Both the position numbers and the translations under genes were made by a program. From NCBI GenBank assembly GCA_963727905.1, contig CAVSIC010000021.1, positions 34,998 to 98,997 of the forward strand: a stretch of DNA of 64,000 bases, written 5' to 3'. The DNA comes from an uncultured Microthrixaceae bacterium (GTDB taxonomy: Bacteria; Actinomycetota; Acidimicrobiia; Acidimicrobiales; VFJN01). This document shows positions 1 through 46,891 of the stretch, in pieces (position 1 is the first letter of the stretch; each line of letters starts with the position of its first letter). The notes beneath the pieces were generated by a model. That model saw nothing but the letters and a program-made list of their open reading frames with translations, was not told where the DNA came from and did no database searches.

Positions 1-327
1 TCGACCGCGGACGACCGCGGGCACGCCGAGGTCGAAGACGTCCGTCGTGCCGGTCATCTCGAACACGCGCAGCACGGCCGGCGAGGCGTCCTCCACCACC
101 ACACGGCCCTCGCCCTGCGACAGCGCGATGAGGGCACCGAGCCCGCTCGAGTCGAGGAAGGTCACGGCGGAGAGGTCGAGCACGACGTCCTGGCCCCGGC
201 CCACGAGCTCGGCCACGAGTGCTTCGATCCGGTCACCGCCGTCCAGGTCCAGGTCGCCCGACGCCAGCACCCGGATGGGGCGAGCATCTGTGTCGACCCA
301 GAGGGAGAGCTCCTGCGCGTCCTGCAC
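1..327 (-). CDS. STAS-domain anti-sigma-factor antagonist (RsbV/SpoIIAA-like); C-terminus runs off the window edge
   Basis: Absent from the supplied ORF track because there is no stop inside the window. The reverse strand from GTG at 327-325, with GGAGG 5 nt upstream, reads VQDAQELSLWVDTDARPIRVLASGDLDLDGGDRIEALVAELVGRGQDVVLDLSAVTFLDSSGLGALIALSQGEGRVVVEDASPAVLRVFEMTG. This contains the STAS core 'LDLS.V.FLDSSGLG.L'. Confidence 0.75.
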   Translation of the reverse strand, partial: MQDAQELSLWVDTDARPIRVLASGDLDLDGGDRIEALVAELVGRGQDVVLDLSAVTFLDSSGLGALIALSQGEGRVVVEDASPAVLRVFEMTGTTDVFDLGVPAVVRGR

Positions 328-536
328 GGCTGCCTCCTAGCGGCATCGGGACCGCCCCAGCGGGTCGATCCGGTCTCCCCAGGCATTCCCGCTCGGGTCC
401 GGGCCCAACCCGCCCGGGCAGGTCTGCGATCTGAACGGGACGGGTAGGGCGGTCGGCGGTGCGAAGGACGGACCGAAGGACCAGCGCGGGCAAGCATCGG
501 AACGGAGCCCGGATCACCGTGGCACCGGGCCCGGGT

Positions 537-590
537 GCCCGCGATGAGGACCCGCGCATGAGGACCCGCGCATGAGGACCCGCGCATGAG
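537..590 (+). repeat. 14-bp tandem direct repeat ATGAGGACCCGCGC: 3 full copies (544, 558, 572) plus partial copies at both ends
   Basis: Read directly: gcccgcg ATGAGGACCCGCGC ATGAGGACCCGCGC ATGAGGACCCGCGC ATGAG. The last ATG (586) is the start codon of the downstream CDS. Confidence 0.95.
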
Positions 591-1770: not shown

Positions 1771-1846
1771 GCGATGGGTCCGGGCGGAACCTCCGAGCAG
1801 CTGCCCACCCGCCGGTCGCGCCGCGCGCGGGCTGCCGGTCGCCCTG

Positions 1847-3961
1847 GTGCTGCTCGTCGGCGGCGTCTCCACGGCGCTCGTCTGGCACCGCGCGGACACC
1901 GACGTCGACCGACGTGACGACGCCGCGGTGAGCGCGACCGTCGACCTGATCGACGGGACCGTCATGGCGGTGCAAGCCGGGCTCTCCGGTGCCGACGCCC
2001 TCGTCCAGCAGGATGGCACCGTCAACCTCGACGCGTTCCGCTCGTACGCGTCCGGCGTCGTCGCAGCCACCACCCTGGAGTCGCTGGCGTTCGTGCCGAT
2101 CGTGCGCGAGGCCGACCGCGCCGCCTGGGAGCTGTCCACGGGCCGGACGATGATCGAGCGGCCCACCGCGGGGGCCGCGCCGGCGCCGCCCCGCCCGTTC
2201 CACTACCCCGTCACCGAGGTCGTCCCGATCACCGACGTGAACCGCGGCATCCTCGGCTTCGACCTGGCCGGCGATCCCATCCGTGGCACTGCGGCCGACC
2301 AGGCCCGGGACCGTGGGGTCCTCGTCTTCAGCGAGCCGGTGCCATCGCAGCCCACGGGCCGCCTCTCGTTCTTCCTCACCCGGGCCCTGTACCGGCCCGG
2401 GGTTCCCCTCGACACCGTGGCGCAGCGCCGCGACGCCACCGTGGCGTTCATGTCCACCGGATACCTGGCCGAGGTCCTGCACGACACCCTCATCGCCGGG
2501 CTCCCGAAGGGGACCTTCTTCGAGGTCCGCGACGGCACCACGTCGCTCGCCAGCGGCGGCAGCCACCACCGGCACGATGCCGAGCTCACCACCGAGGCCA
2601 CCGGCCGCACCTGGTCCGTCATCGCCGCCAACCCCAACGGTCCGACCCGCTGGCTGGCCGGGCTGATCGCCGGCGTCACGGTGCTGCTCACCGGCGCGCT
2701 GGCGATGCTGTGGCGCCGCACCAACCGCTACGACGACCAGGTCCTCCGGTCGACCACCCACCTCCAGGCCCTCGCCGGGTTCGCCACCGGCCTGGCCCCG
2801 CGCCGCAGCAGCGACGACGTGATGAGCTACCTCACGAGCGCCGTGCTCGCCCCGCTCGACGGGATCCATGCCGCCGTCGGCGTGGTCGAGGGCGATCGCC
2901 TCAAGCGCTACTTCACGCCGGGTCCGCTCGCCCAGGCCACCCGCACCGCGCTCCCGGCCACCAACCCGCTGTCCGCCGACACCCCCCTCACCGTCGCCGC
3001 CCGCACTGACGAGACGGTGCTCCTCGCGTCCACGGCCGAGATGCGCGACCGGTACCCGCACCTGGCCGACGCGTGGATGGCAGCCGGGTTCGGGGCGACG
3101 GCCAACCTCCCACTGCACGATCGCCAGGGCGCGGTGATCGGTGCCCTCGGTGTGGCGTGGGACCGCCCGGTGGAGTTCGACGCCGACCTCGTCGGCCGGC
3201 TCACCACCGTCGCCGGCATCGCCGGTCAGTCGTTGGAGCGGGCCCGGCTCGCCGACGCCGAGCACCGGCTGGTCGACGCGCTGCAGACCGATGTCCTTGC
3301 CCCGCTCCCCCACTCCGACGCCCTGGCCTGCGCCGCCCGCTACCTGCCCGCGTCCCAGTCCGTCGGGATGGGGGGCGACTGGTTCGAGGGGATCCTGCTC
3401 GACGACGGCCGCTACGTGGTGGTGGTCGGCGACATCGCCGGGCACGGGATCACCGCGGTCGGGCAGATGGCGCAGTTCCGCACGATGCTCGGCACCCTGA
3501 TCCGCCTCGGCACGCCCCTCGACGAGCTGATCGAACGGGCGTCGCGGTCGGTGGAGGGCACGGGGCGCATCGCCACCGCCGTCGTCGTGGCGATCGACCC
3601 GGCGGCCGGCACCCTCGCCTACGTGGCCGCCGGCCACCCGCCGCCGCTCCTGCGCCTCCCCGACGGCACCACGCGCGTCCTCGGCGACGGGCGCCGCCCG
3701 CTCATCGGCGTCACCCGTGCGTCCGACCCGGCCGGCACCCACGAGTTCCCGATCGGCGCGACCCTGCTCTGCTACACCGACGGGCTCATCGAACGGCGGA
3801 GCGAGTCGATCGACCTCTCGGTCCGACGCCTCGCCGAGCAGCTGACGGGGCTCAGCGCCGGCGACCCGGAGCGCATGGCCGACAGCCTGCTCGAGGCGTG
3901 CCTGTCGCCGGGCGAGCAGACCGACGACGTCGCCCTCGCGCTGATCACCCGCCGCGCGTAG
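1847..3961 (+). CDS. Membrane sensor phosphatase: CHASE extracytoplasmic domain - TM - GAF - PP2C/SpoIIE phosphatase (RsbU-like)
   Basis: 704-aa ORF. The N-terminal TM segment is followed by 'FHYPVTEVVPITDVNRGILGFDLAGDPIRGTAADQARDRGVLVFSEPV', which is CHASE-like. A second TM (WLAGLIAGVTVLLTGALAML) and a GAF-like region follow. The phosphatase part reads 'GGDWFEGILLDDGRYVVVVGDIAGHGITA...CYTDGLIERR...DDVALALI'. The only in-frame start after the upstream stop is GTG 1847 (CTG 1832 is possible). Confidence 0.85.
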   Translation: MLLVGGVSTALVWHRADTDVDRRDDAAVSATVDLIDGTVMAVQAGLSGADALVQQDGTVNLDAFRSYASGVVAATTLESLAFVPIVREADRAAWELSTGRTMIERPTAGAAPAPPRPFHYPVTEVVPITDVNRGILGFDLAGDPIRGTAADQARDRGVLVFSEPVPSQPTGRLSFFLTRALYRPGVPLDTVAQRRDATVAFMSTGYLAEVLHDTLIAGLPKGTFFEVRDGTTSLASGGSHHRHDAELTTEATGRTWSVIAANPNGPTRWLAGLIAGVTVLLTGALAMLWRRTNRYDDQVLRSTTHLQALAGFATGLAPRRSSDDVMSYLTSAVLAPLDGIHAAVGVVEGDRLKRYFTPGPLAQATRTALPATNPLSADTPLTVAARTDETVLLASTAEMRDRYPHLADAWMAAGFGATANLPLHDRQGAVIGALGVAWDRPVEFDADLVGRLTTVAGIAGQSLERARLADAEHRLVDALQTDVLAPLPHSDALACAARYLPASQSVGMGGDWFEGILLDDGRYVVVVGDIAGHGITAVGQMAQFRTMLGTLIRLGTPLDELIERASRSVEGTGRIATAVVVAIDPAAGTLAYVAAGHPPPLLRLPDGTTRVLGDGRRPLIGVTRASDPAGTHEFPIGATLLCYTDGLIERRSESIDLSVRRLAEQLTGLSAGDPERMADSLLEACLSPGEQTDDVALALITRRA

Positions 3962-34063: not shown

Positions 34064-34585
34064 ATGCCGATCCAACGCCTGAACCACGCGGTGCTCTACG
34101 TCCGTGACCTGGAGCGGACGAGGGCCTTCTACACGGAGGCCCTCGACTTCCGGGTCGTGAACGAGATCCCGGGCTTCGGCCTCTTCTTCCAGGCTCCCGG
34201 ATCGACCAACGACCACGACCTCGGCACCTTCGCCATCGGCGACCAGGCCGGGCCCTCGCCCGCCGGCAAGACCACCGTCGGGCTGTACCACCTGGCCTGG
34301 GAGGTCGACACGCTGGCCGAGCTCGAGCGGCTGGGCGGCGTGCTGTCGGCGCGCGGCGCCCTGGTGGGCGCGTCGAGCCACGGCACCACGAAGTCGCTCT
34401 ACGCGAAGGACCCCGACGGCAACGAGTTCGAGCTCGCCTGGCTGGTGCCGCTCGACCTGCTCGACCAGGTCGCCGTCGACGCCCGATCCGAGATCTCCAC
34501 CCTCGACCTCGCCGGCGAGCAGGCCCGCTACGGCGCCGAGACGCTCGGCGGCATCGGCATCTCCCGTCCGGGGGTCCGGTCGTGA
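34064..34585 (+). CDS. VOC-family (glyoxalase/bleomycin-resistance/extradiol dioxygenase) protein
   Basis: 'RLNHAVLYVRDLERTRAFYTEALDF' and 'LYHLAWEV ... KSLYAKDPDGNEFEL' are VOC beta-alpha-beta-beta-beta modules. RBS GGAGGG upstream. Confidence 0.85.
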   Translation: MPIQRLNHAVLYVRDLERTRAFYTEALDFRVVNEIPGFGLFFQAPGSTNDHDLGTFAIGDQAGPSPAGKTTVGLYHLAWEVDTLAELERLGGVLSARGALVGASSHGTTKSLYAKDPDGNEFELAWLVPLDLLDQVAVDARSEISTLDLAGEQARYGAETLGGIGISRPGVRS

Positions 34586-35637
34586 GCACCGAGACCACGA
34601 CCGAAGCCGGCACCGACAGCCCGGTGCTGCAGACCGTGCCGCTCGGCGCGCAGTGGCCCACGCTCGACCCGTTCCTGTTCTGCGCCCACCACGACGACGA
34701 CTACCCCGCCGGTGACGACGCGATGGCGCCCGCGGTGCCCATCGACGACCGAGAGCTGGGCATGGACTTCAGCGGCCAGGACGGCTGGAGCATGTACCAC
34801 GGCCGCACCGTGCCAGGGTTCCCCAACCACCCCCACCGCGGCTTCGAGACGGTCACCTACGTGCGCAAGGGCCTCATCGACCACTCCGACTCGCTCGGCG
34901 CCGCGGCGCGGTTCGGACGGGGCGACGTGCAGTGGCTCACCGCCGGCGGGGGCATCGTCCACGCGGAGATGTTCCCGCTCCTCGAGCGCGACCGCCCGAA
35001 CCCGCTCGAGCTGTTCCAGATCTGGCTGAACCTGCCCGCCGTCGACAAGCTCGTCGAGCCGTACTTCACGATGCTCTGGGCCGGCGACGTGCCCGTGGTC
35101 CACGAGGTGGACGACGAGGGCCGCGCCACCGACGTCACCGTGATCGCGGGATCGTTCGGCGGCGCCACGCCGCCGGCTCCCCCGCCCGACTCGTACGCGG
35201 CGCGGGCGGACGCCGACGTGGCCATCCTCCACCTGCGCCTCGAGCCCGGCGCCCGCTTCCGCCTCCCTGCCGCGCAAGGCGCCGGCACCGCGCGCGTGCT
35301 CTACATCTTCGAGGGCGACACCCTGCGGGTGGCCGACATCGAGGTCGGCAACGACACCGGCGTGGCCGTCCGGGCCGACGTCGCGGTGGACCTCGTCGCC
35401 GGATCCGCCGAGGTCGACGTGCTCGTGCTCCAGGGCCGTCCGATCGGCGAGCCCGTGGCCCGCTACGGCCCGTTCGTGATGACCACCGAGCAGGAGATCG
35501 AGCAGGCGTTCGCGGACTACCGGGAGACCTCCTTCGGCGGCTGGCCGTGGGACGACGATGCCCCAACCCACGGGCGCGACCGGCCGAGGTTCGCCCGCCA
35601 CGTCGACGGCCGCGTCGAGGAGCCGGCGGAGGCCTGA
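34582..35637 (+). CDS. Pirin-family protein
   Basis: 'GFPNHPHRGFETVTYVRKGLIDHSDSLG...GDVQWLTAGGGIVHAEMFP' is the pirin N-terminal cupin with its His ligands. The start overlaps the VOC stop (GTGA). Confidence 0.9.
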   Translation: MSTETTTEAGTDSPVLQTVPLGAQWPTLDPFLFCAHHDDDYPAGDDAMAPAVPIDDRELGMDFSGQDGWSMYHGRTVPGFPNHPHRGFETVTYVRKGLIDHSDSLGAAARFGRGDVQWLTAGGGIVHAEMFPLLERDRPNPLELFQIWLNLPAVDKLVEPYFTMLWAGDVPVVHEVDDEGRATDVTVIAGSFGGATPPAPPPDSYAARADADVAILHLRLEPGARFRLPAAQGAGTARVLYIFEGDTLRVADIEVGNDTGVAVRADVAVDLVAGSAEVDVLVLQGRPIGEPVARYGPFVMTTEQEIEQAFADYRETSFGGWPWDDDAPTHGRDRPRFARHVDGRVEEPAEA

Positions 35638-35721
35638 TCGGCCGGGTCGGCGCTCTGCAAGTGCCGTTCTCATGGGACTACAGTCACCTTCTCGCCAGAT
35701 CGTCGGAGCAGGGAGAACAGG

Positions 35722-36471
35722 GTGCGCATCGTCGTCGTAGGTGCCTCGAGCGGGATCGGTCGGTGCATCGGGGTCGGTCTGGCCCAGGGCGGGGCGCAGG
35801 TCGCGCTCCTGGCCCGCCGCAAGGAACGCCTCACCGACGCCGCCAAGGACGCCGGACCGGGCACGCTCGCCATCGAGTGCGACGTCACCGACGAGGCATC
35901 GTGCCGCGCTGCCATCGAGGAGGCCGCCTCCGGGCTCGGCGGCATCGACGGCCTCGTCTACACGCCGGGGATCGGACCGCTCGTCCGCCTCGTGGACACG
36001 GACGCCGACCAGTGGCGCCGGGTGTTCGACACCAACGTCATCGGCGCGTCGCTCGTCACCGCCGCCGCGCTCCCCCACCTCAAGGCCGCCACCGGCACCG
36101 GCATCTACCTGTCGTCGGTGAGCGCCTCCCAGACCCCGCCGTGGCCCGGGCTCGGCGCCTACGCCGTGAGCAAGGCCGCCCTCGACAAGCTCGTCGACGC
36201 GTGGCGGGCGGAGCACCCCGACCTCGGGTTCACCCGGCTGATCGTCGGCGAGTGCGCCGGCGGCGAAGGCGATGCGGGGACGGGGTTCGCGGACGCCTGG
36301 GACCAGGACCTCGCCGCCGAGCTCGTGCCGATGTGGATCTCACGGGCCTACATGAGTGGGGCGATGATGCCCGTCGAGCGCGTGGTGGGCGCCGTGGAGC
36401 ACATCCTGCGGGCCGGGGCCACCGATTCGGTCCCGTCCGTCACCGTCGCCCCCCGGCACCCGCCGCTCTAG
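35722..36471 (+). CDS. Short-chain dehydrogenase/reductase (SDR)
   Basis: 'VVVGASSGIGR' (TGxxxGxG type) and 'YAVSKAAL' (YxxxK) are present. Confidence 0.85.
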   Translation: MRIVVVGASSGIGRCIGVGLAQGGAQVALLARRKERLTDAAKDAGPGTLAIECDVTDEASCRAAIEEAASGLGGIDGLVYTPGIGPLVRLVDTDADQWRRVFDTNVIGASLVTAAALPHLKAATGTGIYLSSVSASQTPPWPGLGAYAVSKAALDKLVDAWRAEHPDLGFTRLIVGECAGGEGDAGTGFADAWDQDLAAELVPMWISRAYMSGAMMPVERVVGAVEHILRAGATDSVPSVTVAPRHPPL

Positions 36472-36483
36472 CGGGGACCTTCG

Positions 36484-36876
36484 TTGGACCCGGCGACCTC
36501 CGGCTACGTCGATCGGCCCGACTACCGGGTCGAGCTCCTCCGCCGGCGCAACCGCTGCGAGGTCCGCGCCGGCGACGTCCTGATCGCCGCGAGCGAGCAG
36601 TGCACGGTCGTCGACGAGCAGGACCACGGGCTCGTCGTCTACTTCCCGCGCGCGGATGTCGACCTGACGAAGCTCGAGCCGAGCGACCGCACCAGCCGCT
36701 GCCCGTTCAAGGGCACCGCCACCTACTGGCGCCTGCCCGGAGCAGAGGCCGAGGTGGCCTGGACCTACGAGGACCCGTACCCGCAGGTCGCGGACCTCGC
36801 CGGTCAGGTCGCGTTCTACCAGGACCGCGTCACGGTCACGATCGGCGTGGCCCACCCGGCGGTCTCCGGTCGGTGA
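36484..36876 (+). CDS. DUF427-domain protein
   Basis: 130 aa. '...VVYFPRADVD...TSRCPFKGTATYW...AWTYEDPYPQVADLAGQVAFY' matches the DUF427 pattern. Confidence 0.75.
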   Translation: MDPATSGYVDRPDYRVELLRRRNRCEVRAGDVLIAASEQCTVVDEQDHGLVVYFPRADVDLTKLEPSDRTSRCPFKGTATYWRLPGAEAEVAWTYEDPYPQVADLAGQVAFYQDRVTVTIGVAHPAVSGR

Positions 36877-37724
36877 GCTCGCTCGCCGGCCTGCTGGACG
36901 TGTTCGACGTCGAGGAGGTCGGACCGCACCGGTACCGCGGTCAGCACGACGCCGGGGACCGCGAGGTGATCGACGGCAGCCAGGTGCTGGCCCAGTCGAT
37001 CGTCGCTGCGACCCGGTCGTGCACCGGCAAGGTCGTCCGCTCCGCCCACGCGGTGTTCATCGCGCCGGTCACCGCCGCCCAGCCGATCGACGTCGCGGTC
37101 GAGGTCGTGCGGGAGGGCCGCACGGCCGCGTCCGCGCGGGTGGTCGGCACGCAAGGCGATCGCACGAAGGTCGACGTGCTCCTGCTGCTCGACGTGCCCC
37201 AGCCCGACGTCGTGCGCCGCGCCGCCCAGGTCGAGGCGGTTGGCCCCGACGAGGCCATCGCGCTGCACATGCCGGTGGACGGACGCGAGGTCCGGCTGGT
37301 CGGCGTCGCCGACCCGAACGACCCCGACCACGTCGGGCCGCCGGTGCTCGACGCCTGGGTCCGCTACGACGACCCGCCCCAGCGGGACGACCTGGTGCGG
37401 GCGCTGCTCGCCCACTTCACCGGCCACCTGTCGATCTCCACGAGCATGTTCCCCCACCTGGGCCTCGGCACCGCCCAAGCCCACCGCACGCTGTCCACCG
37501 GCGTGATGACGATCGGCATCGCCTTCCACGAGCCCGTCAGCGCGGGCGGATGGCTGCTGTACCACCACGAGAGCACACAGGTCGGGGCCGGGATGTCCTA
37601 CGTGCGCGGTCAGATCGTGGGCGACGACGGCGCGCTCGTGGCGTCGTTCACCCAGGAGGGGCTGATCCGCGCCTTCGTGCCGGAGGCCGGCGCCGAGGCG
37701 ATCCCGGAGGCCGCGCGGCTCTGA
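36873..37724 (+). CDS. Acyl-CoA thioesterase II (TesB-like, double hotdog)
   Basis: GTG 36873 overlaps the upstream stop (GTGA). 'LLDVFDVEEVGPHRYRGQH...IDGSQVLAQSIVAA...SAHAVFI' and '...GAGMSYVRGQIVGDDGALVASFTQEGLIR' resemble TesB. Confidence 0.8.
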   Translation: MSSLAGLLDVFDVEEVGPHRYRGQHDAGDREVIDGSQVLAQSIVAATRSCTGKVVRSAHAVFIAPVTAAQPIDVAVEVVREGRTAASARVVGTQGDRTKVDVLLLLDVPQPDVVRRAAQVEAVGPDEAIALHMPVDGREVRLVGVADPNDPDHVGPPVLDAWVRYDDPPQRDDLVRALLAHFTGHLSISTSMFPHLGLGTAQAHRTLSTGVMTIGIAFHEPVSAGGWLLYHHESTQVGAGMSYVRGQIVGDDGALVASFTQEGLIRAFVPEAGAEAIPEAARL

Positions 37725-37743: not shown

Positions 37744-38469
37744 TCAGGTCAGGACGCCGAGGTACGCGGCCTGCACGTCCGGGTGCTCGCGGACGTGCTT
37801 GGGCGTCCCGGTGGCGATGACCTCGCCGAAGTTGAGGACGAAGATCTCCGAGCACAGCTGCATCACGAGGTCCATGTCGTGCTCCACCAGGAGGATGGCC
37901 ACCCCGGAGCCGGCGACCGTCTCCAGCACCTCGGCGAGGCGCAGGGTCTCGACCTCGTCGAGGCCGCTGGCTGGCTCGTCGAGGAGCAGCACCTTCGGCT
38001 CCGTGGCGAGCGCTCGGCCGAGCTCCACGAGGCGGGCCTGCCCGGTGGGCAGTGCGTCGGCGCGGCGGCCGGCCACCGGCCCGAGGCCGAGGAGCTCCAC
38101 CACCCGGTCGGCCACCGCCACCGCCCCCCGCGTGCCGTGCCGCCGGTTCAGGCCGGCGATCTCCGCGGCGGTGCGGACGTTGTCGAACGCGGTCATCGAC
38201 CCGAACAGCTCGAGCCGCTGGAAGGTGCGGTTCATGCCGAGGCTGGCCCGACGGTGCGGGGGCGCACTGGAGACGTCGACGCCGTCGAGGTGGACCCGGC
38301 CGCGGCAGCGCTGGACGCCCGCGATGGCGTTGAAGGTGGTGGTCTTGCCGGCTCCGTTCGGACCGATCAGGCCGACGATCGTGCCGGCCTCGACCGTCAG
38401 CGAGACGTCACGAACCGCTGCGTGCGCCCCGAAGCGGACGTCCAGGTGCTGCGCGTCGAGCACGGCCAT
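37744..38469 (-). CDS. Branched-chain-amino-acid-type ABC transporter ATP-binding protein (LivG-like), intact
   Basis: 241 aa from ATG 38469 (AGGAGG upstream). Walker A 'GPNGAGKTT', 'LPTGQARLVELGRAL' (signature variant) and Walker B 'LLLDEPASGL' are present. Confidence 0.9.
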   Translation of the reverse strand: MAVLDAQHLDVRFGAHAAVRDVSLTVEAGTIVGLIGPNGAGKTTTFNAIAGVQRCRGRVHLDGVDVSSAPPHRRASLGMNRTFQRLELFGSMTAFDNVRTAAEIAGLNRRHGTRGAVAVADRVVELLGLGPVAGRRADALPTGQARLVELGRALATEPKVLLLDEPASGLDEVETLRLAEVLETVAGSGVAILLVEHDMDLVMQLCSEIFVLNFGEVIATGTPKHVREHPDVQAAYLGVLT

Positions 38470-38883
38470 TGCGAGGCTCCTCCTGTGAGGGATCGGATGG
38501 CGTCCACGAGCTCGAGGTGGTCTCGGCGACGCGCCGCCTCGTGGGCGCGGGCGTCGCGGATCGCCACCGTGAGCCAGTGGGTGAAGAGCGTGAGCGCCCC
38601 GATGATCGCCAGCGCCAGGCCGAGGAGGCCACCGGAGATCAGGTACGGGACCTGCTCCTCGATCAGCACCGAGTTCGCGGCGCCCGACCCACCCGAGCAC
38701 GATCACCAGGAGCCCGGTCGCCATCAGAGAGGCCGCCACGCTCAGGAGGAAGCGCGGGTGGCCGACGATCGACCGGCGACCCTCGTCTCGCAGGTGGTCG
38801 TCGGCGCCGTCGGCGAGTCGGGCGTCGCGCTCCTCCGGAGGTGGCCCCCCGTCGAGCACCTCGAACCGCTCGGGTGAGGTCAT
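38397..38883 (-). pseudogene. Two-TM membrane protein of unknown function embedded in the ABC operon; one +1 frame break near 38685
   Basis: ATG 38883 overlaps the upstream stop (ATGA). It reads MTSPERFEVLDGGPPPEERDARLADGADDHLRDEGRRSIVGHPRFLLSVAASLMATGLLVIVLGWVG. After one extra base it continues as AANSVLIEEQVPYLISGGLLGLALAIIGALTLFTHWLTVAIRDARAHEAARRRDHLELVDAIRSL. The 3' end is uncertain and overlaps the LivG-like start. Confidence 0.5.
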
Positions 38884-40269
38884 GGTTCCTCCCAGTCACA
38901 GGGATCGGTGTGGTCCGCCGTCAGGACGGCGAAGGCGAGCGCCCCGAGCCGGTCGCCGATGAACGGCACCGCCAGCAGGGCGAGCAGCACGAGCGAGCCG
39001 ATGCCGGCGCCCTCGGGGATCGGGACGTCGGTGCCGACCGGGCGCTGGCCGCCGGGGCCGACGGGAGCGGGGGCGACGGTGCCCGGCAGGTCGAAGGTCG
39101 GGGAGATCGACGGCACGTCGAACGAGGTGTCGGGCAGGAACGGTGTCTCGGGCAGGCCGGCCTCGAAGCCCGGACGGGCGGCCAGCGACACGGTGCCGCG
39201 GGCGACCTCGACGGACACGAGGTGCTTCGCCTTCGCGATGGTGAGGACGTCCTCGACGCCGGGAGCACCCGGGATGCGGGTTGTCGATCGGCGGGAAGGC
39301 GTCGATCAGCAGGGCGAGGCCGGGGAGGGTGCGCTGCGACAGCTCGAGGTCGACCTTCAGGCCAGCCGTGGCGAGCTGGCCGGCGGCGCCGCCCTCGAGC
39401 TTCACAGGGCTCGACAGCGTGACGGTGATGCCGACCTGGCGGAGGATCTCGCCGACCGGTCCGGCCAGCCCGCCGAGGAGCGGCCCGAGGATCGGATCGG
39501 CGGCGTCGCCCTGGTGGATGCCCTTGCTGTCGATGGTGACGGGGACGCCCAGGATCGACGCGCCGGCGACGGTGGTGCCACCACTCAGCTTGGTGTCACC
39601 GCCCTCGGAGGTCGCCGTGAGGTCGGTGGTGATCGAGTCGATCACCAGGAGCCCGAGCACGTTGAAGCCGCTGGTCTGGGTGCGGGCGTGCACGGTGACC
39701 GTGGAGCCGTCGGTCTCGGTGGTGGCCGTCGCGGTGACGGTGCCGAACGTGGCCACGGCGGGAGCGTCGACCGCGGGCAGCGTGGCGTGGGCCCGCGATC
39801 CGCGCGTCGGTGACGTCGACCCGCGCCGACGAGGCCCGGGACCGGGCTCACCTCCGCGCTCGGGTTGCCGGAGCCCGACGTCGCCGAGATGCGGTACGGG
39901 TAGGGCGGGAGCGTGCCGGCGGGGTACTGCTGCCGACGCGAGCGACAGCACGACGTCGGGGTTGGCGAGCAGGTCGCCGGGGTCGGCCACGGAGGCCCGG
40001 GCGAAGGTCGACGGGCCGCTGGCGATCGTGGCGAGGGCGTCGGGGATCCCGAGGTCGACGGGGGGCGGCGTCGGGAGGATGTTGCCGAGGTTGTAGAAGG
40101 CGTGGACGCCGGACGCGGCGGCCGACCCCTGGTAGCCGCCGAGCGTGCCGCCGTCCTGCGCGGCGCTGGGGGCACCCTCGAAGAAGCTCGCGGCCACGAC
40201 GAGCCCGAGCACCACCCGGATCGCTCGCAGCGCCGGGTGCCTCCGACCCCTCGTGCCTCTCGCGGTCAT
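38880..40269 (-). pseudogene. Secreted, C-terminally membrane-anchored protein of unknown function embedded in the ABC operon; about 4 +1 frame breaks
   Basis: ATG 40269 overlaps the permease stop (ATGA). The signal-like N-terminus is MTARGTRGRRHPALRAIRVVLGLVVAASFFEGAPSAAQ. The body is readable through four frames (...QYPAGTLPPYPYRISATSGSGNPSAEVSPVPG / ARVDVTDARIAGP / HATLPAVDAPAVATFGTVTATATTETDGSTVTVHARTQTSGFNVLGLLVIDSITTDLTATSEGG... / ...SVEVARGTVSLAARPGFEAGLPETPFLPD...). It ends with the TM segment GIGSLVLLALLAVPFIGDRLGALAFAVL. The length of 1390 nt equals 462 codons plus 4 nt. Confidence 0.55.
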
Positions 40270-41279
40270 GCCTCGACCCCCAGCTCCCCGGGTGCGGCGG
40301 CTCGAGCCTCGGACCGACGGCGGGCCCGTCCCACGAGGGCCTCCCGCCAGCTGCCGCCCTGCCCGAACCCGGACGTCAGCATGCCGGCGAGCCCGTCCGG
40401 CTGGCGGCCGAGGCCGATGGCGGCGGCGGCGATCACGACGAACACCAGCCCGGCGAGGTCGGGGTAGGTGGACTGGGCGTAGACGAGGGCGGCGAACAGG
40501 CCGCCGGCGATCGCCGCACCGGTGACGGTGGTGATGCCGCCGACGAAGGCGTAGAGGAGGATCACGAGGCTGTTCACCGGGTCGAACTGCGTGCCGTCGG
40601 CCGTGCCGTTCATCCCACCGAAGAGCGCCCCCGCGCACCCGGCGATGAACGCCGAGAACGCGAAGATCGCGACCTTGGCCCACCGGACCCGCAGGCCGAG
40701 GGTGGCGGCGGCGAGCTCGCTGTCCCGGATCGCGGTGAGCTGGCGACCGAACCAGCTCCGCCGCACCACGCCCACCACGATCGCCAGCACGACGAACACG
40801 ATCGCGCACCACACGGCGAACGCGGTGTCCGACCGGGTGGAGATGCCGAGCACGTCGGGGCGGCCCACGAAGCGGCCGCTCCGGCCGAAGACGTGCGGGT
40901 CGTCGAGGATCACCGCGCGCCCGATCAGCGCGATGCCGAACGTGCTGAGCGCGAGGTGGAGGCCCCGCAGCCGCACCGACGGCAGCGCGACGAGGACGCC
41001 GAGCAGCCCGGACACCAGCCCGCCGAGCGAGCATGCCGAGCACGTTGTTGCCGCCGAACGCCTCGCCGCCACGAACGCGCCGATCCCCGAGGAACAGGTA
41101 CTGGGTGAGCGAGATCTGGCCCGAGAGCCCGTGAGCGCGACCAGCGACAGCGCGATGGTGGCGATCACGAGGCCGCGCACCAGGTGCGCCGAGATGTCGG
41201 ATCCTCCGAGGTTGCCCGCGAGGGCGACCAGGCCGACGAGCACGGCACCGGCCACAGCCGAGCGGCGCAGGTCGGCACC
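40266..41279 (-). pseudogene. LivM-like ABC permease, multiple frame breaks (boundary with the LivH-like part is approximate)
   Basis: Recognisable only by frame hopping: ...LVIATIALSLVALT / GLSGQISLTQYLFLG / IGAFVAA / EAFGGNNVLGMLA / GGLVSGLLGVLVALPSVRLRGLHLALSTFGIALIG.... These give the LivM 'GQISL...G.GAY' and 'RLRG.Y.A..T' motifs. The C-terminal 230 aa are in one frame. Confidence 0.7.
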
Positions 41280-42187
41280 GGCGGCTGGTCGCGCCCGACC
41301 ACCCGTCCCGCTGACAGGCGGAACGACGGGACGAAGAGCACGGCCAGCACGAGGAAGATGCCCGGGATGGCGAGGCGCAGCCGGAGGAACACGTCGCCGT
41401 CCGGCCAGAGCCACGAGACGTTCGGGAGCTCCTGGCACAGCCCGAGGATCAGCGCGCCGACGAACGTCATCGGCAGGCTGGTGAGCCGGCCGATCATCGC
41501 GGCGCCGTAGGCGTTGAGCACCAGCAGGGTGAGCACGATGGCGTTGAGGTTGGTGCCGGCGGAGAACGAGCACCCCGGCGAGGGCCGCCAGGACGAAGCC
41601 GATCATCCAGCTGTACCGGGCCATCGCCACCGAGCGCACGCCGTTCAGGCGGGCCAGCTCGGGGTCGTCGACCACCGACCGCATGCGGGCGCCGAGCGAG
41701 GTGCCGAAGAGGAGGAACCGCAGGCCGAACGCCACCGCGATGGCGATCGCCACCTGGGCGATGCGGTCGTAGGAGATCGGCACGTCGAGGACCGGATCTT
41801 GTGGTCACCGAGCAGGAACGGGGCGTTGCGGGCCACGTCCTCGGGGAACACCTTCTGCGCGACGCCGAGCAGCCCGACCGTGAGCGCGACGGTGACGACC
41901 AGCGAGGTGGCGTAGTCCGACCCCTGGAACTGTCGCAGCAGGCGCTCCACGACGAGGCCCGCGAGCGGTGCGGCGATGAACACCACGAGGACGACGGCGA
42001 TCGGCGTCGGCACGTCCTGGTTGACGTGGAGCTCGTAGTAGACGAACGCCGCGATCATGCCGACCGCGCCGTGGGCGAAGTTGAAGACGCCGGTCACCGT
42101 GTAGGTGAGCACGAGGCCCATCGCGGCGATGGCGTAGATGCAGCCGAGCATCAGGCCGAACAGCGTGAACTGGAGGAGCTCGGTCAC
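41280..42187 (-). pseudogene. LivH-like ABC permease, multiple frame breaks; reads in frame from the LivF-like ATPase with no stop
   Basis: VTELLQFTLFGLMLGCIYAIAAMGLVLTYTVTGVFNFAHGAVGMIAAF... (LivH N-terminal signature), then ...FLLGDHKI / VLDVPISYDRIAQVAIAIAVAFGLRFLLFGTSLGARMRSVVDDPELARLNGV... / ...LTLLVLNAYGAAMIGRLTSLPMTFVGALILG..., each segment in a different frame. Confidence 0.7.
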
Positions 42188-42915
42188 CGCGCCGCTCCCG
42201 AGGTAGGCGGCCTGCACGGCGTCGTCGGCCCCCGAGCTCGGGCCGTCGTAGGTGACGACGCCGTGGGCCATCACGTAGGCGTGGTCGGCGAAGCGGAGCC
42301 CGACGGTGGCGAACTGCTCGACCACGAGCACCGACACGCCGGCGGAGGCCACGTGGGCGACCGCCTCGTAGAGCTCGCCGACGATCAGCGGGGCCAGGCC
42401 CATCGACAGCTCGTCGACGAGGAGGACCGAGGGGTCGGTGCCCAGCCCGCGGGCGAGGGCCAGCATCTGCTTCTCGCCGCCGGACAGCGTGCCGGCCAGC
42501 TGGGTGCGGCGTTCGGCGAGCCGGGGGAACAGGGTGAAGGCGACCTCGGTGATGCGCTCGAGGTCGGCCCCGCAGGCGGCCGCCACCCGGAGGTTGTCGG
42601 CCACGTTGAGGTTCGGGAACACCGACCGGCCCTCGCGGATGTGGCAGACGCCGAGCCGGGCCAGCACGTCGGCCCCGGCGCCGGTTGAGGTGGCGGCCCT
42701 CGACGTGGCGGCAGCCGCGGGTCGGGGTGAGGAGCCCGCTCATGACGCCGAGGACCGTGGTCTTGCCGGCGCCGTTCGGCCCGAGGAGGGCGGTCACGCT
42801 CGCCACGTCGGACGCCGATGTCGACGCCGTGGACCACCTCGATGCGGCCGTAGGCGGCCCCGACCCCGCGCAGCGCGATCGGCGCGACCTCGGTCGCCTC
42901 CAGCACGCCCGTCAA
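42188..42915 (-). pseudogene. LivF-like ABC ATP-binding protein, two +1 frame breaks in the N-terminal 100 aa
   Basis: TTG 42915 overlaps the substrate-binding-protein stop (TTGA); GTG 42906 is an alternative start. It reads LEATEVAPIALRGVGAAYGRIEVVHGVDIGV / ASVTALLGPNGAGKTTVLGVMSGLLTPTRG (Walker A) / LARLGVCHIREGRSVFPNLNVADNL...LSGGEKQMLALARGL...LLVDELSMGLAP (signature and Walker B), across three frames. Confidence 0.75.
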
Positions 42916-44339
42916 CAGATGAACCCTCGGTCCGGGGTGATCCGCTTCCACTTGCCGTTGACGACCTGCATGAGCACGTAGCACCCGTTGCTCAGCTTCT
43001 TGCCGAGCTGGATCGGCCCGAAGAACCCGTCGGCGTCGTAGGTGCCCGTCCCCCGCAGCTGGGCCAGGAGCGCGTCCCGGGAGATGGGCCCGGGGAGGGC
43101 CTTCACGGAGTCGAAGAAGGCCTTCGACGCCGCCCAGGCGTCGGCCGCGAAGTAGTCGGGGCGGACCCCGGGGGCCACCCGCGCCATCCACTCGACGAAG
43201 CGGGCGGTCTCCGGGTTGGATCCCGCCTCCTCGGTGGGGAGCGAGCGGATCCAGGTGACGGCGTTCTCCGCCGCGGCCTCGCCGGCCACCTCGATGAAGT
43301 CGGACCCGTAGCCGGAGATCAGCTCGAGCTGCTTGAGCTTGTACCCGGTGTCGTACATCGCCCGCGCCATCGTGGCGTTCAGGTTCCCGGCGGCCGGGTA
43401 GAAGAGGTAGTCGGCCTTGCTGTTGGCCACGCCCCGGGCGGCCGCGTCGTAGCTGATCGTGCTGAGCGGGAGCGCCTGCTCGTTCACGATCTTGATGCCG
43501 ACGGCCTGCATCTGCGCCTTCTGCTGCTCGACCTGCGTCCGCACGATGGCGTTGTCGATGTACACGAGGGCGGCCCTCCGGATGCCCTGGGCGTACAGGT
43601 ACTTGTACTTGCCGATCTGCGCGTTGACGTTCGCGAACGGGGGGTTGATGTCGAAGACGGTGGGGGCGGCCTGGAACGTGTCGGCCGTGGCCGTGGCGAC
43701 CACCGGGATCTTCGCGTTGGTCACGATGTCGACCCCACCGCCGTCGCCTGAGGCCAGCCCGCCGGAGATGCCGAGGATCTGCGGGTTGAAGCCCGTGATG
43801 AGGGACCGGTACCGCGCGTTCTCGAAGCCGTCGTCGCCGGACTTGAGCACCACCTGGCGCCCGCACACGCCACCGGTGGCGTTGAGGTAGGCGACGTAGG
43901 CCCGCGACGCGGCGGCCGAGGTCTCGCCCAGGCCGGGAAGGGGGCCGGAGATGGTGTTGATGGCGGCCACCGTGATGGTCTGGGCGGTGACGCCGGGCGC
44001 GGTCGACGGCGCTGCGCAGGGCCGAGGGCCCGAGGCGCCACCCGTGCCGCCGCCGGTGGTCCCGCCGGTGCCGCCGGTGGTCCCGCCGGTGCCGCCGGTC
44101 GTCCCGCCGTCGGTCGCGCCGGCCACCGTGGAGGCCGTCGGGGAATCGGAGCCGCCGTCGCCGCCATCGGTCGCGTCGGCGCCGCTCCCCGCACCGCGGT
44201 TGACGACGAACGAGCGCTCCTCGTCCGACCAGCGGGAGCCGCAGGCCGCCGTGGCGATCAACGCGCACAGCAGGAGCAGCGCAGTGGCGCGACGGGCCGC
44301 CCTGATCGTGCGCGGTGCGCTCAGATCCCCAGCGGCCAT
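42912..44339 (-). CDS. ABC transporter substrate-binding lipoprotein (LivJ/Peripla_BP_6-like), intact
   Basis: ATG 44339 (GGGGAG upstream) is preferred over the track's TTG 44357. The signal and lipobox-like 'LLLLCALIATAAC' are followed by a Gly/Thr-rich linker. The body includes 'ITVAAINTISGPLPGLGETSAAASRAYVAYLNATGGVCGRQV...'. Confidence 0.85.
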   Translation of the reverse strand: MAAGDLSAPRTIRAARRATALLLLCALIATAACGSRWSDEERSFVVNRGAGSGADATDGGDGGSDSPTASTVAGATDGGTTGGTGGTTGGTGGTTGGGTGGASGPRPCAAPSTAPGVTAQTITVAAINTISGPLPGLGETSAAASRAYVAYLNATGGVCGRQVVLKSGDDGFENARYRSLITGFNPQILGISGGLASGDGGGVDIVTNAKIPVVATATADTFQAAPTVFDINPPFANVNAQIGKYKYLYAQGIRRAALVYIDNAIVRTQVEQQKAQMQAVGIKIVNEQALPLSTISYDAAARGVANSKADYLFYPAAGNLNATMARAMYDTGYKLKQLELISGYGSDFIEVAGEAAAENAVTWIRSLPTEEAGSNPETARFVEWMARVAPGVRPDYFAADAWAASKAFFDSVKALPGPISRDALLAQLRGTGTYDADGFFGPIQLGKKLSNGCYVLMQVVNGKWKRITPDRGFIC

Positions 44340-44352
44340 GCTCTCCCCCTGT

Positions 44353-44395
44353 CGCAAGAACGCCCTAATCAGATATGGATATCATAGTTCTCGCA
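44353..44395. promoter_or_regulatory. Imperfect inverted repeat CGCAAGAAC ... GTTCTCGCA flanking an AT-rich core, in the divergent substrate-binding-protein/SDR intergenic region (candidate operator)
   Basis: Read directly: CGCAAGAACgccctaatcagatatggatatcataGTTCTCGCA. The core contains GATATggATATC. This is the only AT-rich stretch in the 91-bp intergenic gap. Confidence 0.4.
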
Positions 44396-44430: not shown

Positions 44431-45258
44431 ATGTCGCTGTTCGACGCCTTCGGCTACAAGGGGAAGCGAGCGGTCGTCGTCGGCGGCGCCACCGGGATGG
44501 GCGCGGCAGCCGCCGAGCTGGTCCGGGACGCCGGCGCCGAGGTGGTCGTGATGGACCGCGCCGAGGTCACCCTCGACGGGGTGAAGGCGATGCAGGTCGA
44601 CATGTCCGACAGGGCCTCCATCGAGGCGGCCGTCGCCGAGAGCGGCGGTCCGGTCGACGCCCTGCTGTCCTGCGCCGGGGTGGCCGACGGCACGCCCGGC
44701 ATCGAGCGGATCAACTTCATCGGCCACCGCCACATGATCGACCTCATGGTCGCCGGCGGGCAGCTGCGCCGCGGCTCGGCCATCGGCCTCATCTCCTCCG
44801 CCGCCGGCTTCGGCTGGGAGCAGAACCTCCCCCTCCTCAACGAGTACCTCGCGATCACGGACTTCGACGAGGCGTCGAAGTGGGCGGTCGACCACGGCAA
44901 GGCCGACTACCTCTGGAGCAAGCTCTCCATCAACGCCTACATCGCCCGCGAGGCGATGGGCTTCCTGAAGCAGGGCATCCGGATCAACGCCATCCTCCCG
45001 GGGCCGACGAACACCCCGCTGGCCCGCGCCAACGCCGAGACGTGGCTGTCCTTCGGCGCCGACTACCGCGAAGAGGTCGGGCTCGAGGCGTCCACGCCGC
45101 TCGACCAGGCCTACCCCCTCGTGTACCTCTGCTCCGATGCCGCCTCGGTGATCACCGGCGTCACCCTCGTCACCGACCTCGGGTACTTCGCCTCCGGGGT
45201 GAGCGGCGCCTTCCCCACCGCGGGCGAGGCGGTCGGGTTCCTGCGCAGCACCTTCTGA
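44431..45258 (+). CDS. Short-chain dehydrogenase/reductase (SDR)
   Basis: 275 aa from ATG 44431 inside track ORF 43951..45258. 'AVVVGGATGMGAAAA' is the dinucleotide-binding loop, followed by 'INAILPGPTNTP'. Confidence 0.85.
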   Translation: MSLFDAFGYKGKRAVVVGGATGMGAAAAELVRDAGAEVVVMDRAEVTLDGVKAMQVDMSDRASIEAAVAESGGPVDALLSCAGVADGTPGIERINFIGHRHMIDLMVAGGQLRRGSAIGLISSAAGFGWEQNLPLLNEYLAITDFDEASKWAVDHGKADYLWSKLSINAYIAREAMGFLKQGIRINAILPGPTNTPLARANAETWLSFGADYREEVGLEASTPLDQAYPLVYLCSDAASVITGVTLVTDLGYFASGVSGAFPTAGEAVGFLRSTF

Positions 45259-45262
45259 CCGC

Positions 45263-46891
45263 GTGCGGCCCCTCCCCGAGCTGACGCCGGCCAACGAGCG
45301 GTTCTGGACCGGCGGGGCCGACGGCACCCTCCACATCGACGGCTGCGGCGACTGCGGTGCCCTGGTGCACCCGCCCGTCCCCGTGTGCCAGGTGTGCCGG
45401 AGCCGCAACCGCGTGATGGTCCCGGTGTCGGGCCGGGCCACGGTCATCGGGTTCACGGTGAACCACCACAGCTGGACCCCCGCGTTCGAGCCGCCGTACG
45501 TCATCGCCAACGTGGCGCTCGAGGAGGACCCGAGCGTCCGCCTCACCACCAACGTCGTGGGCTGCGACCCCGACGACGTGCACGTGGGCCAGCACGTCGC
45601 GGTGCGCTTCGAGCACCACGAGGACGTGTGGGTGCCGCTCTTCGCGCCGACCGGCGAGCCGGCCGCCGACGAGCTGCCGGTGGCCGCGCCGCAACGCCCG
45701 ACGCCGCGCGCGCCGCTGGGCGACGACCGGTACGAGCACCGGTCGGTGCTCTCCGGGATCGGCCGGTCGAGGCTGGGCCGGCGCCTGATGGTCGACCCGC
45801 TGTCGCTCACGATCGACGCCTGCCTCGAGGCCATCGCCGACGCCGGCCTCACCCCCGACGACATCGATGGCCTGTCGACCTACCCCGGCCCGGTGGGCAT
45901 GGGCATGAGCGAGGGCGGTGTCACCGCGGTCGAGGAGGCGCTGCGCCTGCGGCCCACCTGGATCAACGGCGGCGGGGAGCTCCCCGGGCCGGCCGGCTCG
46001 ATCATCGCGGCGATGCTCGCGGTGAGCGCCGGCCTCTGCCGCCACGTCCTGTGCTTCCGCACCGTGTGGGAGTCGACCTACGCGACCCTGGGGCTGCGAC
46101 CCCCGGCCGGCGGCCGGGTTTCGGGCATGAGCGAGCACCGCGCCCCCTTCGGCGCGATGTCGGCGGCCAGCTGGATCGGCGTCAACGCCAACCACTACTT
46201 CCACCGCTACGGGGCGACGCGGGAGATGCTCGGCTGGATCGCCATCAACGGCCGCACCAACGCCGGTCGCAACCCGGCGGCGATCTACCGCGACCCGATG
46301 ACGATGGACGACTACATGGCCGCCCGCCCGATCTCGAGCCCGTTCGGCCTCTACGACTGCGACGTGCCCTGCGACGGCTCGATCGCGGTGATCGTCTCGG
46401 CCGCCGAGGTGGCGCCCGACCTCCCTCACCCCGCGGTCCGGGTCGAGGCCGCGGGCACGCAGATCCTCGAGCGGGTGTCGTGGGACCAGGACACCGTCAG
46501 CCACGAGCCCCAGGTGCTCGGCCAGAGCGCGCACCTCTGGACGCGCACCGGCCTGCGGCCGGCCGACGTCGACCTCGCGCTCGTCTACGACGGGTTCACG
46601 TTCAACGCCATCTCCTGGCTCGAGGGCCTCGGGTTCTGCGGACTGGGCGAGGCCCAGGACTGGCTCGACGGCGGCCGCCGGATCGCGCTCGACGGCGAGC
46701 TCCCGGTGAACCCGCACGGCGGGCAGCTGTCCGAGGGCCGCACCCACGGCTTCGGCTTCCTCTACGAGGCGGTGACCCAGCTCCGCCACGACGCCGGTGA
46801 GCGCCAGGTGCGCGACGCCCGCACCGCGGTCGTCACCTCCGGCGGCGGCACTCCCTCCGGCGTGCTGCTCCTCCGCAACGACCGCCCGTAA
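45263..46891 (+). CDS. Fusion of a DUF35 OB-fold/Zn-ribbon domain with a thiolase-like (SCP-x / lipid-transfer-protein type) domain
   Basis: 542 aa. The N-terminus has 'FWTGGADGTLHIDGCGDCGALVHPPVPVCQVCRS' (Cys4 ribbon) plus an OB-fold. The C-terminal 390 aa are thiolase-fold without the classical biosynthetic thiolase signatures ('SGIGRSRLGRRL...DGLSTYPG...NPHGGQLSEGRTHGFGFLYEAVTQLR'). Confidence 0.8.
   Translation: MRPLPELTPANERFWTGGADGTLHIDGCGDCGALVHPPVPVCQVCRSRNRVMVPVSGRATVIGFTVNHHSWTPAFEPPYVIANVALEEDPSVRLTTNVVGCDPDDVHVGQHVAVRFEHHEDVWVPLFAPTGEPAADELPVAAPQRPTPRAPLGDDRYEHRSVLSGIGRSRLGRRLMVDPLSLTIDACLEAIADAGLTPDDIDGLSTYPGPVGMGMSEGGVTAVEEALRLRPTWINGGGELPGPAGSIIAAMLAVSAGLCRHVLCFRTVWESTYATLGLRPPAGGRVSGMSEHRAPFGAMSAASWIGVNANHYFHRYGATREMLGWIAINGRTNAGRNPAAIYRDPMTMDDYMAARPISSPFGLYDCDVPCDGSIAVIVSAAEVAPDLPHPAVRVEAAGTQILERVSWDQDTVSHEPQVLGQSAHLWTRTGLRPADVDLALVYDGFTFNAISWLEGLGFCGLGEAQDWLDGGRRIALDGELPVNPHGGQLSEGRTHGFGFLYEAVTQLRHDAGERQVRDARTAVVTSGGGTPSGVLLLRNDRP

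Follow-up and report, generated by a model that had tools for sequence, protein, structure and literature searches.

What is the role of two membrane proteins whose genes are built into an operon for an ATP-binding cassette (ABC) importer, between the permease gene and one of the two ATPase genes? The question is raised by a stretch of 64,000 nucleotides from an uncultured Microthrixaceae bacterium (contig CAVSIC010000021.1, positions 34,998 to 98,997), in the following called the window, whose minus strand carries a liv-type operon with two such genes, termed X and Y. We conclude that X and Y are probably two dedicated accessory subunits of a distinct importer subfamily within the HAAT family (Liv/Urt-type, TC 3.A.1.4), which occurs in high-GC soil bacteria, Acidimicrobiia among them. 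The two genes have the layout of co-transcribed genes, are translationally coupled within the operon, encode membrane-anchored products, are under purifying selection and co-occur with the transporter through several rearrangements of the operon; the pair accompanies this kind of transporter in over a hundred further high-GC bacterial loci. The linkage of X and Y to the transporter is well supported; how the two proteins act is what we infer. A preliminary description of the locus had suggested that they could be accessory components, at the surface or in the periplasm, of a new variant of the transporter, and judged by sequence this is the best reading.

An importer operon with two additional membrane protein genes

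On the minus strand the genes follow each other in the order lipoprotein substrate-binding protein (SBP), LivF-like ATPase, fused LivH-LivM permease, X, Y and LivG-like ATPase, as assigned by Pfam, NCBIfam and tblastn searches (Table 1); the GC content of the region is ~73%. This agrees with the preliminary description except for the permease, which had been counted as separate LivH- and LivM-like proteins. In every intact homologue the two are halves of a single polypeptide of ~636 residues, each half being a BPD_transp_2 domain. In the permease of the homologous locus L001, UrtB/LivH matches cover residues 4-257 and UrtC/LivM matches residues 309-566.

The SBP matches PF13458 over positions 1-342 of 343 (E=2e-42, 146 bits) and carries a lipobox-like AACGS, followed by a Gly/Thr-rich tether of ~70 residues ahead of the binding domain. 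By tblastn against the L001 proteins, the window SBP is 64% identical, the pieces of LivF, which lie in different frames, 82-84%, LivG 74% and the permease 55-63% (to the 636-residue protein). The best NCBIfam matches of the two ATPase orthologues in L001 are LivG and LivF, respectively, all of them below the equivalog cutoffs.

The genes are tightly joined. The SBP stop codon is overlapped by the TTG start of LivF (TTGA), and X and Y both start on the ATGA overlaps reported earlier, namely GGCATGACC at the permease/X junction (40269..40266) and ACCATGACC at the X/Y junction (38883..38880). Overlaps of four nucleotides, either ATGA or GTGA, are present at both of these junctions in nearly all of 19 homologous loci.

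The X-Y pair occurs together with one type of transporter

One genome per GTDB species was scanned with a profile of X. This yielded 18 loci, all of them in metagenome-assembled genomes of Acidimicrobiales, including Microthrixaceae and Acidimicrobiaceae. The order SBP-LivF-LivHM-X-Y-LivG was recovered by tblastn in every one of these loci that is long enough, with two exceptions: in L004 livF comes after the permease gene (SBP-PERM-F-X-Y-G) and in L014 livG is absent. The contexts in L001 and L002 read SBP, ABC_tran protein, 636-residue BPD_transp_2 protein, X, Y, ABC_tran protein. More than 214 relatives of X and more than 505 of Y were found in the protein collection; they stem mostly from Acidimicrobiales metagenome bins and often share contigs.

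A scan of metagenomes with the Y-family alignment produced 80 loci, which were annotated with hidden Markov models for X, Y, permease, SBP and ATPase. An X-like gene lies directly upstream of Y in 27/27 of the loci that have at least 1.5 kb of upstream sequence, and genes for the SBP and the fused permease are found on the same strand in 11/11 of those with long flanks. At least five gene orders are seen among these loci: SBP-F-PERM-X-Y-G, SBP-F-PERM-X-Y, SBP-PERM-X-Y, SBP-PERM-ATP-ATP-X-Y and ATP-ATP-X-Y-SBP-PERM, together with X-Y-ATP-ATP on shorter contigs. Whatever the gene order, X and Y stay together and stay with one type of transporter, and such constancy is strong comparative evidence of a shared function. 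An unannotated protein pair is here locked to one transporter subfamily, a lock that has survived many operon rearrangements.

The same loci bear on the possibility that X and Y are co-regulated passengers, X being a surface protein such as an adhesin, a receptor that scavenges the substrate or an unrecognised extracellular enzyme by which the transported compound is released, and Y its membrane partner, neither of which would touch the transporter. We think this unlikely. No X-Y pair apart from HAAT genes was seen in any locus long enough to judge, and the four-nucleotide overlaps at both junctions, together with the placement between permease and ATPase, argue for a fixed stoichiometry, although the position of X-Y relative to the transporter genes differs between operon types and some systems do not have adjoining ATPase genes, as might be expected of passengers.

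Two loci deviate in other ways. On the short metagenome contig L075 (3-1062) a Y-like gene comes directly after an ATPase gene, an X-like gene being absent from this place; this may be an X-less variant, or X may be encoded elsewhere. In L005 a second HAAT operon (1-2102, minus strand) contains what appears to be one fused permease (31% identity to the 636-residue query over its residues 3-558) and then a LivG-like gene, with no X-Y between them.

The reading frames of X and Y in the window

About 16 single-base insertions or deletions are found in livF, the permease gene, X and Y, clustered in the 4.3 kb from 38486 to ~42800. The breaks reported earlier for X and Y are confirmed, and livF and the permease gene are affected as well. 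We located them by a frame plot of the GC content at third codon positions (GC3) and by DNA alignment to L002, the closest intact locus (86% nucleotide identity), in which all of them are +/-1 nucleotide, of both signs. No break falls in the SBP gene, in livG or in the 5.6 kb on the far side of livG, and the remaining window consists of long single-frame segments. Removal of four single bases yields an uninterrupted X of 461 residues and removal of two a Y of 157 residues (Table 1), neither with an internal stop. GC3 stays at 0.9-1.0 within each fragment, and the ratio of nonsynonymous to synonymous substitution rates (dN/dS) relative to L002 is 0.31 for X and 0.17 for Y, compared to 0.20 for the intact livG.

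Since the breaks are single bases that leave no stops after correction, since dN/dS is similar to that of livG and since the flanking genes are intact, sequence errors confined to this patch are the most likely cause of the breaks; at most, the damage would be very recent. Their pattern resembles an unpolished or low-coverage patch of an assembly more than gene decay. The clustering in livF, livHM, X and Y, with none in the SBP gene, livG or the downstream 5.6 kb, would also be compatible with a decaying operon, in which X and Y, as pseudogenes or as what is left of an unrelated inserted gene, have no function at present. We regard this as very improbable. Decay does not account for breaks that are each a single base of either sign, for fragments that keep their GC3, for the read-through of X and Y once six bases are removed, or for dN/dS values as low as that of an intact gene, and it would not have spared the 2.2 kb of the SBP gene and livG, in which ~7 breaks are expected (an estimate from the local rate). 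Moreover, X and Y have undamaged orthologues at the equivalent place in many genomes and are therefore not the debris of an insertion. The preliminary description had named two findings that would speak against its idea, absence of the arrangement from other genomes and X and Y being fragments of a recognisable unrelated gene; neither applies, X and Y being full-length members of their own families. Any damage would be recent and confined to this copy, and would leave the family-wide conservation unexplained. The frame breaks have no bearing on what X and Y are.

A 573-residue database protein (P0324) looks like a fusion of the X C-terminus, Y and LivG. It contains long out-of-frame stretches and is a gene-calling artefact on a frameshifted contig, which means that the same kind of single-base error is present in other public assemblies of this operon.

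X is a predicted type-I membrane protein with a conserved anchor

The corrected X has an N-terminal hydrophobic signal segment (residues 12-37) and a C-terminal hydrophobic anchor (residues 414-448) in hydropathy plots, in line with the ~460 residues, signal peptide and anchor described before. Its richness in Thr, Gly and Ala is likewise real (35% of residues); what had been taken for beta-like repeats are long hairpins of a single ectodomain that shows no sequence repeats. This emerges from an AlphaFold2 model of P0001, a protein 77% identical to X, built with 54 relatives (pLDDT 79.5, pTM 0.70). The model consists of a signal helix, a beta ectodomain (residues 41-363) of long hairpins plus three helices, a disordered Pro-rich linker (364-424) and a helix (425-456). 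X is thus predicted to be a type-I membrane protein with a signal peptide, a beta-rich ectodomain, a Pro-rich linker, a transmembrane anchor and a C-terminal Cys.

The centre of the ectodomain has a recognisable relative. X scores 38.5 bits against NCBIfam NF040603 (choice_anch_P; cutoff 27), the match extending from residue 128 to 238 of the stitched protein, about a quarter of X, and from position 11 to 123 of the 185 profile positions. A full-length match is found neither for X nor for its paralogue X' described below (positions 16-119). Some X orthologues already carry the choice-of-anchor P name at NCBI (P0062, P0079). By these profile alignments, X shares a domain with the choice-of-anchor P family and not the full architecture. 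The family has no known function, and we found no mention of it in the literature. Full-text searches on choice-of-anchor P, HAAT auxiliary subunits, fused LivH/LivM of Actinobacteria and transporter accessories of Acidimicrobiia returned nothing relevant and nowhere an account of the present gene arrangement. The window X matches no Pfam family, no consistent match emerged from Pfam searches with the 54 relatives of X (E up to 1), and a profile of X had zero matches among PDB sequences at E up to 1. Foldseek searches of the model against PDB and BFVD retrieved only outer-membrane beta-barrels with TM-scores <=0.2, which we attribute to the long antiparallel hairpins and not to a shared fold.

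The choice-of-anchor families are by definition surface proteins with interchangeable anchors, and that the core of X belongs to one of them would suit a passenger that is merely retained at the membrane. Conservation points the other way: the transmembrane anchor reaches 3.2 bits, compared to 1.5-1.7 bits in the preceding linker, C459 is invariant, and outside the ectodomain no parts are more conserved than this anchor and, in Y, the membrane motif described below, which is unexpected for a mere tether. All distant X-like proteins (L049-L098) keep the layout of X including a C-terminal Cys-Pro-x-acidic end.

The invariant Cys lies few residues past the anchor (window ~38883-38900) and would be cytosolic by the predicted topology. 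The C-termini of X-like proteins usually follow the Cys-Pro-x-acidic pattern; examples are CPLEKP, CPIEEK, CPYEGN and CDWEEP. Long low-complexity tethers are found on both extracytoplasmic proteins of the window, on the SBP (43990-44230, Gly/Thr-rich) and on X (~39030-39200, Pro-rich).

Y is a predicted transmembrane hairpin with a long cytosolic helix

The corrected Y of 157 residues falls within the 130-160 residues estimated before and has the expected two transmembrane helices (residues 43-70 and 80-105 by hydropathy), followed by the charged C-terminal helix, which is rich in Arg. In the AlphaFold2 model of its relative P0127 the first transmembrane helix spans residues 45-70, and the second runs on as one helix to residue 133. 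Y is therefore predicted to form an N-in/C-in hairpin with a cytosolic N-terminal helix, a long Arg-rich cytosolic helix and a basic tail. The motif EEQVPYLISGGLLG spans the short acidic outer loop into the second transmembrane helix. The outer-face motif reads E-Q-x-P-Y-x-I-S-G-G (EQxPYLISGG), and the motif of the second helix is invariant across the wide family.

A Y-family profile search of 1.84 billion cluster representatives recovered 1404 clusters (50% identity) at E up to 1e-3. Only 28 of them score below 1e-30, which marks Y as the window-type branch of a large unannotated family. Y has no relative in Pfam, NCBIfam or PDB, the PDB sequence-profile search giving zero matches at E up to 1, and no consistent Pfam match was obtained with 44 Y relatives (E up to 1). 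Several candidate assignments were rejected. Recurring weak matches to THEG4, DUF6338, Holin-X, CrgA, T2SSM and MnhG are compositional matches of transmembrane segments. The YeaQ/YmgE label (GlsB, transglycosylase-associated) that JGI attaches to some relatives found no match in the 44 relatives at E up to 1. The Rv2732c family (NF050115) reached 13.9 bits (E=0.03) against a cutoff of 60, and nine members of the wider family had no match to it. Finally, Y is not a detached N-terminal extension of LivM (DUF3382): a weak match occurs in 4/44 members (best E=0.022), and residues 1-120 of E. coli LivM aligned to the Y-family alignment with an hhalign probability of 0.2%.

Y ends at 38408 and not at 38397, the boundary given in the preliminary description; the open reading frame 38397..38669 is in the wrong frame at its 3' end. 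The overlap of Y with livG is 59-62 nucleotides long in 12 homologous loci (L002 3659-3720) and 28 nucleotides in L001. The shared nucleotides code for the basic C-terminal tail of Y in one frame and make up the first ~20 codons of livG in another. In loci without a downstream livG (L014, L106/L038) Y is shorter, 144-146 residues, and the tail is absent.

A paralogous system without adjoining ATPase genes

A distant member of the Y family, P0271, led to the loci L021, L022 and L104, in which genes for an SBP', a fused permease' (678 residues), X' (~500 residues) and Y' (~226 residues) are joined by overlapping junctions. No ATPase gene lies within 6 kb of these paralogous loci. X' aligns with X from the signal peptide through the transmembrane anchor and the terminal Cys (hhalign probability 99.9, E=2e-36) and scores 30.7 bits against NF040603, again above the cutoff. 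The plasmid collection contains zero relatives of X or Y'. SBP' and X' are long-tethered like their counterparts in the window.

Y' carries an extra conserved, presumably cytosolic C-terminal H/C...C-x2-C motif, which the window-type Y does not have and which is probably a small His/Cys metal-binding domain. In P0271, P0281, P0290, P0314, P0357, P0445 and P0484 the ~45 C-terminal residues follow the pattern LVAT..G(T/S)M(A/L)HRPDC.VV.GK..LR.V.......C.(L/I)C.P.

Such a domain could belong to a regulatory or sensory module, in which the X ectodomain senses the substrate or the loaded SBP and the signal passes via the anchor and Y to the cytosolic helix of Y and, in Y', to this domain, so as to gate the ATPase or to signal to other cytosolic partners. 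The long conserved cytosolic helix of Y, continuous with its second transmembrane helix, and the invariant Cys that by predicted topology ends X in the cytosol could serve the same end, and there is a precedent in LptC, whose single transmembrane helix modulates the ATPase activity of LptB2FG. Nevertheless, genes for kinases, transcription factors or other signalling proteins are not regularly found alongside, no known signalling fold was identified, and the Cys domain is absent from the window-type Y, so we hold a sensory role to be quite improbable.

Comparison with known transport systems

The composition of the transporter core is that of the HAAT family (TC 3.A.1.4): a Peripla_BP_6 SBP, two BPD_transp_2 domains, here fused, and LivG- and LivF-like ATPases. 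It is HAAT at the family level and, judging from equivalog scores far below the NCBIfam cutoffs, not a Liv or Urt orthologue. The core resembles E. coli LivJ/K-HMGF and UrtABCDE in its cluster-B SBP, its LivH/UrtB and LivM/UrtC permease domains, its two differing ATPases of the LivG/UrtD and LivF/UrtE type and the BCA_ABC_TP_C tail on LivG. It differs in the arrangement, which is not the canonical contiguous livHMGF. In E. coli the genes run livK-H-M-G-F, LivH (308 residues) and LivM (425 residues) are separate, and nothing lies between the permease and ATPase genes, as had been stated for canonical liv operons. Here, in contrast, a single gene encodes both permease halves and comes after livF, the genes of two extra membrane proteins, X and Y, separate it from livG, and the lipoprotein SBP has a long Gly/Thr tether.

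X and X' resemble the choice-of-anchor P proteins in their central beta region, which exceeds the NF040603 cutoff. The definition of that family does not cover the conserved N-terminal part of the X ectodomain, the helical inserts or the transmembrane anchor with its C-terminal Cys, nor does it include Y and a HAAT transporter as obligatory partners.

LptC (in LptB2FGC), MlaD (in MlaFEDB) and the Mce proteins (with YrbE/MceG) belong to ABC systems that handle hydrophobic cargo, in which they are partners anchored in the membrane and exposed outside the cytoplasm. The system described here would resemble them in combining an ABC core with a partner that presents a beta-rich domain outside the membrane on a single transmembrane helix, and the neighbouring genes point to catabolism of hydrophobic acids. 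Furthermore, LptB is the second or third best NCBIfam match of the LivG/LivF-type ATPases, which are the closest relatives of LptB among the NCBIfam models. X, however, contains no MCE, LptC/OstA or other Pfam domain and has no PDB fold match; its anchor is C-terminal and follows a cleavable signal peptide, whereas the partners in Lpt, Mla and Mce systems have an N-terminal signal anchor; and those systems work without an SBP, which is present here. In design these partners are the nearest analogues, but the likeness is one of design only, not of membership, with no relationship in sequence or fold.

For Y the closest comparison is with DctQ of TRAP transporters and TctB of TTT transporters, which are small accessory membrane subunits of SBP-dependent transporters. 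Like these, Y is small and hydrophobic; DctQ and TctB are encoded beside the large permease and needed with it. Both have four transmembrane helices, compared to two in Y, and matches of Y-family members to TctB are at chance level (3/44 members, E about 0.02).

How X and Y may act

The model that we consider most likely, X and Y as accessory subunits of the importer, can be put as follows. The core would be formed by the tethered lipoprotein SBP, the fused LivH-LivM permease and the LivF and LivG ATPases. X would be exported via its signal peptide and retained by its C-terminal transmembrane helix, showing a beta-rich ectodomain of ~320 residues on a flexible Pro-rich stalk of ~60 residues. 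Y, with its outer-face motif and its long cytosolic Arg-rich helix, would be suited as an intramembrane adaptor. The X anchor and the Y hairpin may form an intramembrane unit packed on the fused permease, with the Y helix possibly reaching the ATPase. This packing would keep the X ectodomain over the translocation pathway, where it could cooperate with the long-tethered SBP in capturing or handing over the substrate.

Several points weigh against this model. Physical association, topology, ectodomain function and the class of substrate are what we infer from sequence and models. The X ectodomain shows no recognisable ligand-binding or catalytic signature and, as described, no fold match of note (best TM-scores <=0.2). 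The four central genes of the operon are frame-broken in the window, and this copy may be non-functional if the breaks are real. A fused LivHM permease also occurs without X-Y, in the second operon of L005, so the pair is not a general requirement of fused permeases. LivG is absent in L014 and L106, and both ATPase genes are absent in L021 and L022, which means that coupling to LivG is not universal. Neither X nor Y was found naturally fused to a transporter subunit, the sole candidate being the artefactual P0324. Finally, the proposed substrate is deduced only from gene neighbourhoods, which vary.

SBP-dependent ABC importers are textbook machines of four or five components. Extra integral subunits are to our knowledge rare and mostly described in lipid-trafficking systems of diderm bacteria and mycobacteria. 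If X and Y are part of the complex, they would define a new architectural class for the HAAT family and give a function to two large families of "hypothetical" proteins. They would also explain the uptake of substrates that feed CoA-dependent catabolic clusters in Acidimicrobiia, which are abundant in soil and wastewater. A bolder version of the model, which we offer tentatively and think doubtful as a whole, is that X and Y are an unrecognised class of ABC-importer subunits that, together with fused LivHM and a tethered SBP, serve an envelope-reaching uptake of poorly soluble organic acids in monoderm Actinomycetota. The X ectodomain would then be a new fold on a flexible stalk by which the substrate is captured or channelled towards the SBP and permease, Y would couple the anchor to the permease and ATPase, and the system would be a Gram-positive, SBP-dependent functional counterpart of the Lpt, Mla and Mce accessory proteins.

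Neighbouring genes and the possible substrate

Genes recurrently found next to the X-Y operons encode a P450, an acyl-CoA dehydrogenase, a family-III CoA-transferase, thiolase/DUF35 proteins, an SDR, a luciferase-like oxidoreductase, an acyl-CoA synthetase and a Xaa-Pro-dipeptidase-like amidohydrolase. Those flanking the operon in the window are listed in Table 1.

Table 1. Coordinates of the operon, its features and its flanking genes in the window, and of the paralogous system in its own loci.
Feature	Position	Strand	Basis or remarks
Substrate-binding lipoprotein (SBP; LivK/LivJ-like, Peripla_BP_6)	42912..44357	-	intact open reading frame; PF13458
LivF-like ATPase	42184..42915	-	tblastn pieces against L001 LivF; ~3 single-base frame breaks
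Fused LivH-LivM permease	40266..42187	-	tblastn; GTG start at 42187; seven single-base indels relative to L002
X, 461 residues, frame-corrected	38880..40269	-	extra bases 39928, 39827, 39802, 39275
Centre of X ectodomain matching choice-of-anchor P (approximate coordinates)	39529..39887	-	NCBIfam NF040603
C-terminal transmembrane anchor of X (GIGSLVLLALLAVPFIGDRLG...)	38922..39026	-	hydropathy, model helix, conservation; invariant Cys follows
Y, 157 residues, frame-corrected, predicted two-helix transmembrane hairpin	38408..38883	-	frame breaks 38686 and ~38486
Overlap of Y 3' end and livG 5' end, 62 nucleotides, out of frame	38408..38469	-	window sequence
LivG-like ATPase (ABC_tran + BCA_ABC_TP_C tail)	37744..38469	-	intact open reading frame; PF00005, PF12399
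SDR	~44490-45258	+	window flank
DUF35/thiolase-like protein	45203-46888	+	window flank
Cytochrome P450	46962-48410	-	window flank
Glyoxalase-fold protein, pirin, SDR, DUF427-like, thioesterase-like	within 34064-37724		other window flank
Paralogous four-gene system (SBP'-permease'-X'-Y')	L021 1073-6681; L022 1043-6654; L104; also L049, L051, L062		

The recurrence of catabolic genes in these neighbourhoods softly suggests that the transporter takes up an organic (carboxylic) acid or an amide of poor solubility and not free branched-chain amino acids. The SBP itself does not indicate the substrate, its matches to solved HAAT SBPs being only weak (E 1e-4 to 3e-7) and to amino-acid- and aromatic-acid-binding proteins. 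The operons are at present annotated as "branched-chain amino acid transporters", a label that their gene neighbourhoods do not support. A P450 gene lies within 8 kb of the X-Y operon in 12/19 of the compared loci. In the paralogous loci L021, L022 and L104 a family-III CoA-transferase gene is found immediately downstream, on the opposite strand.

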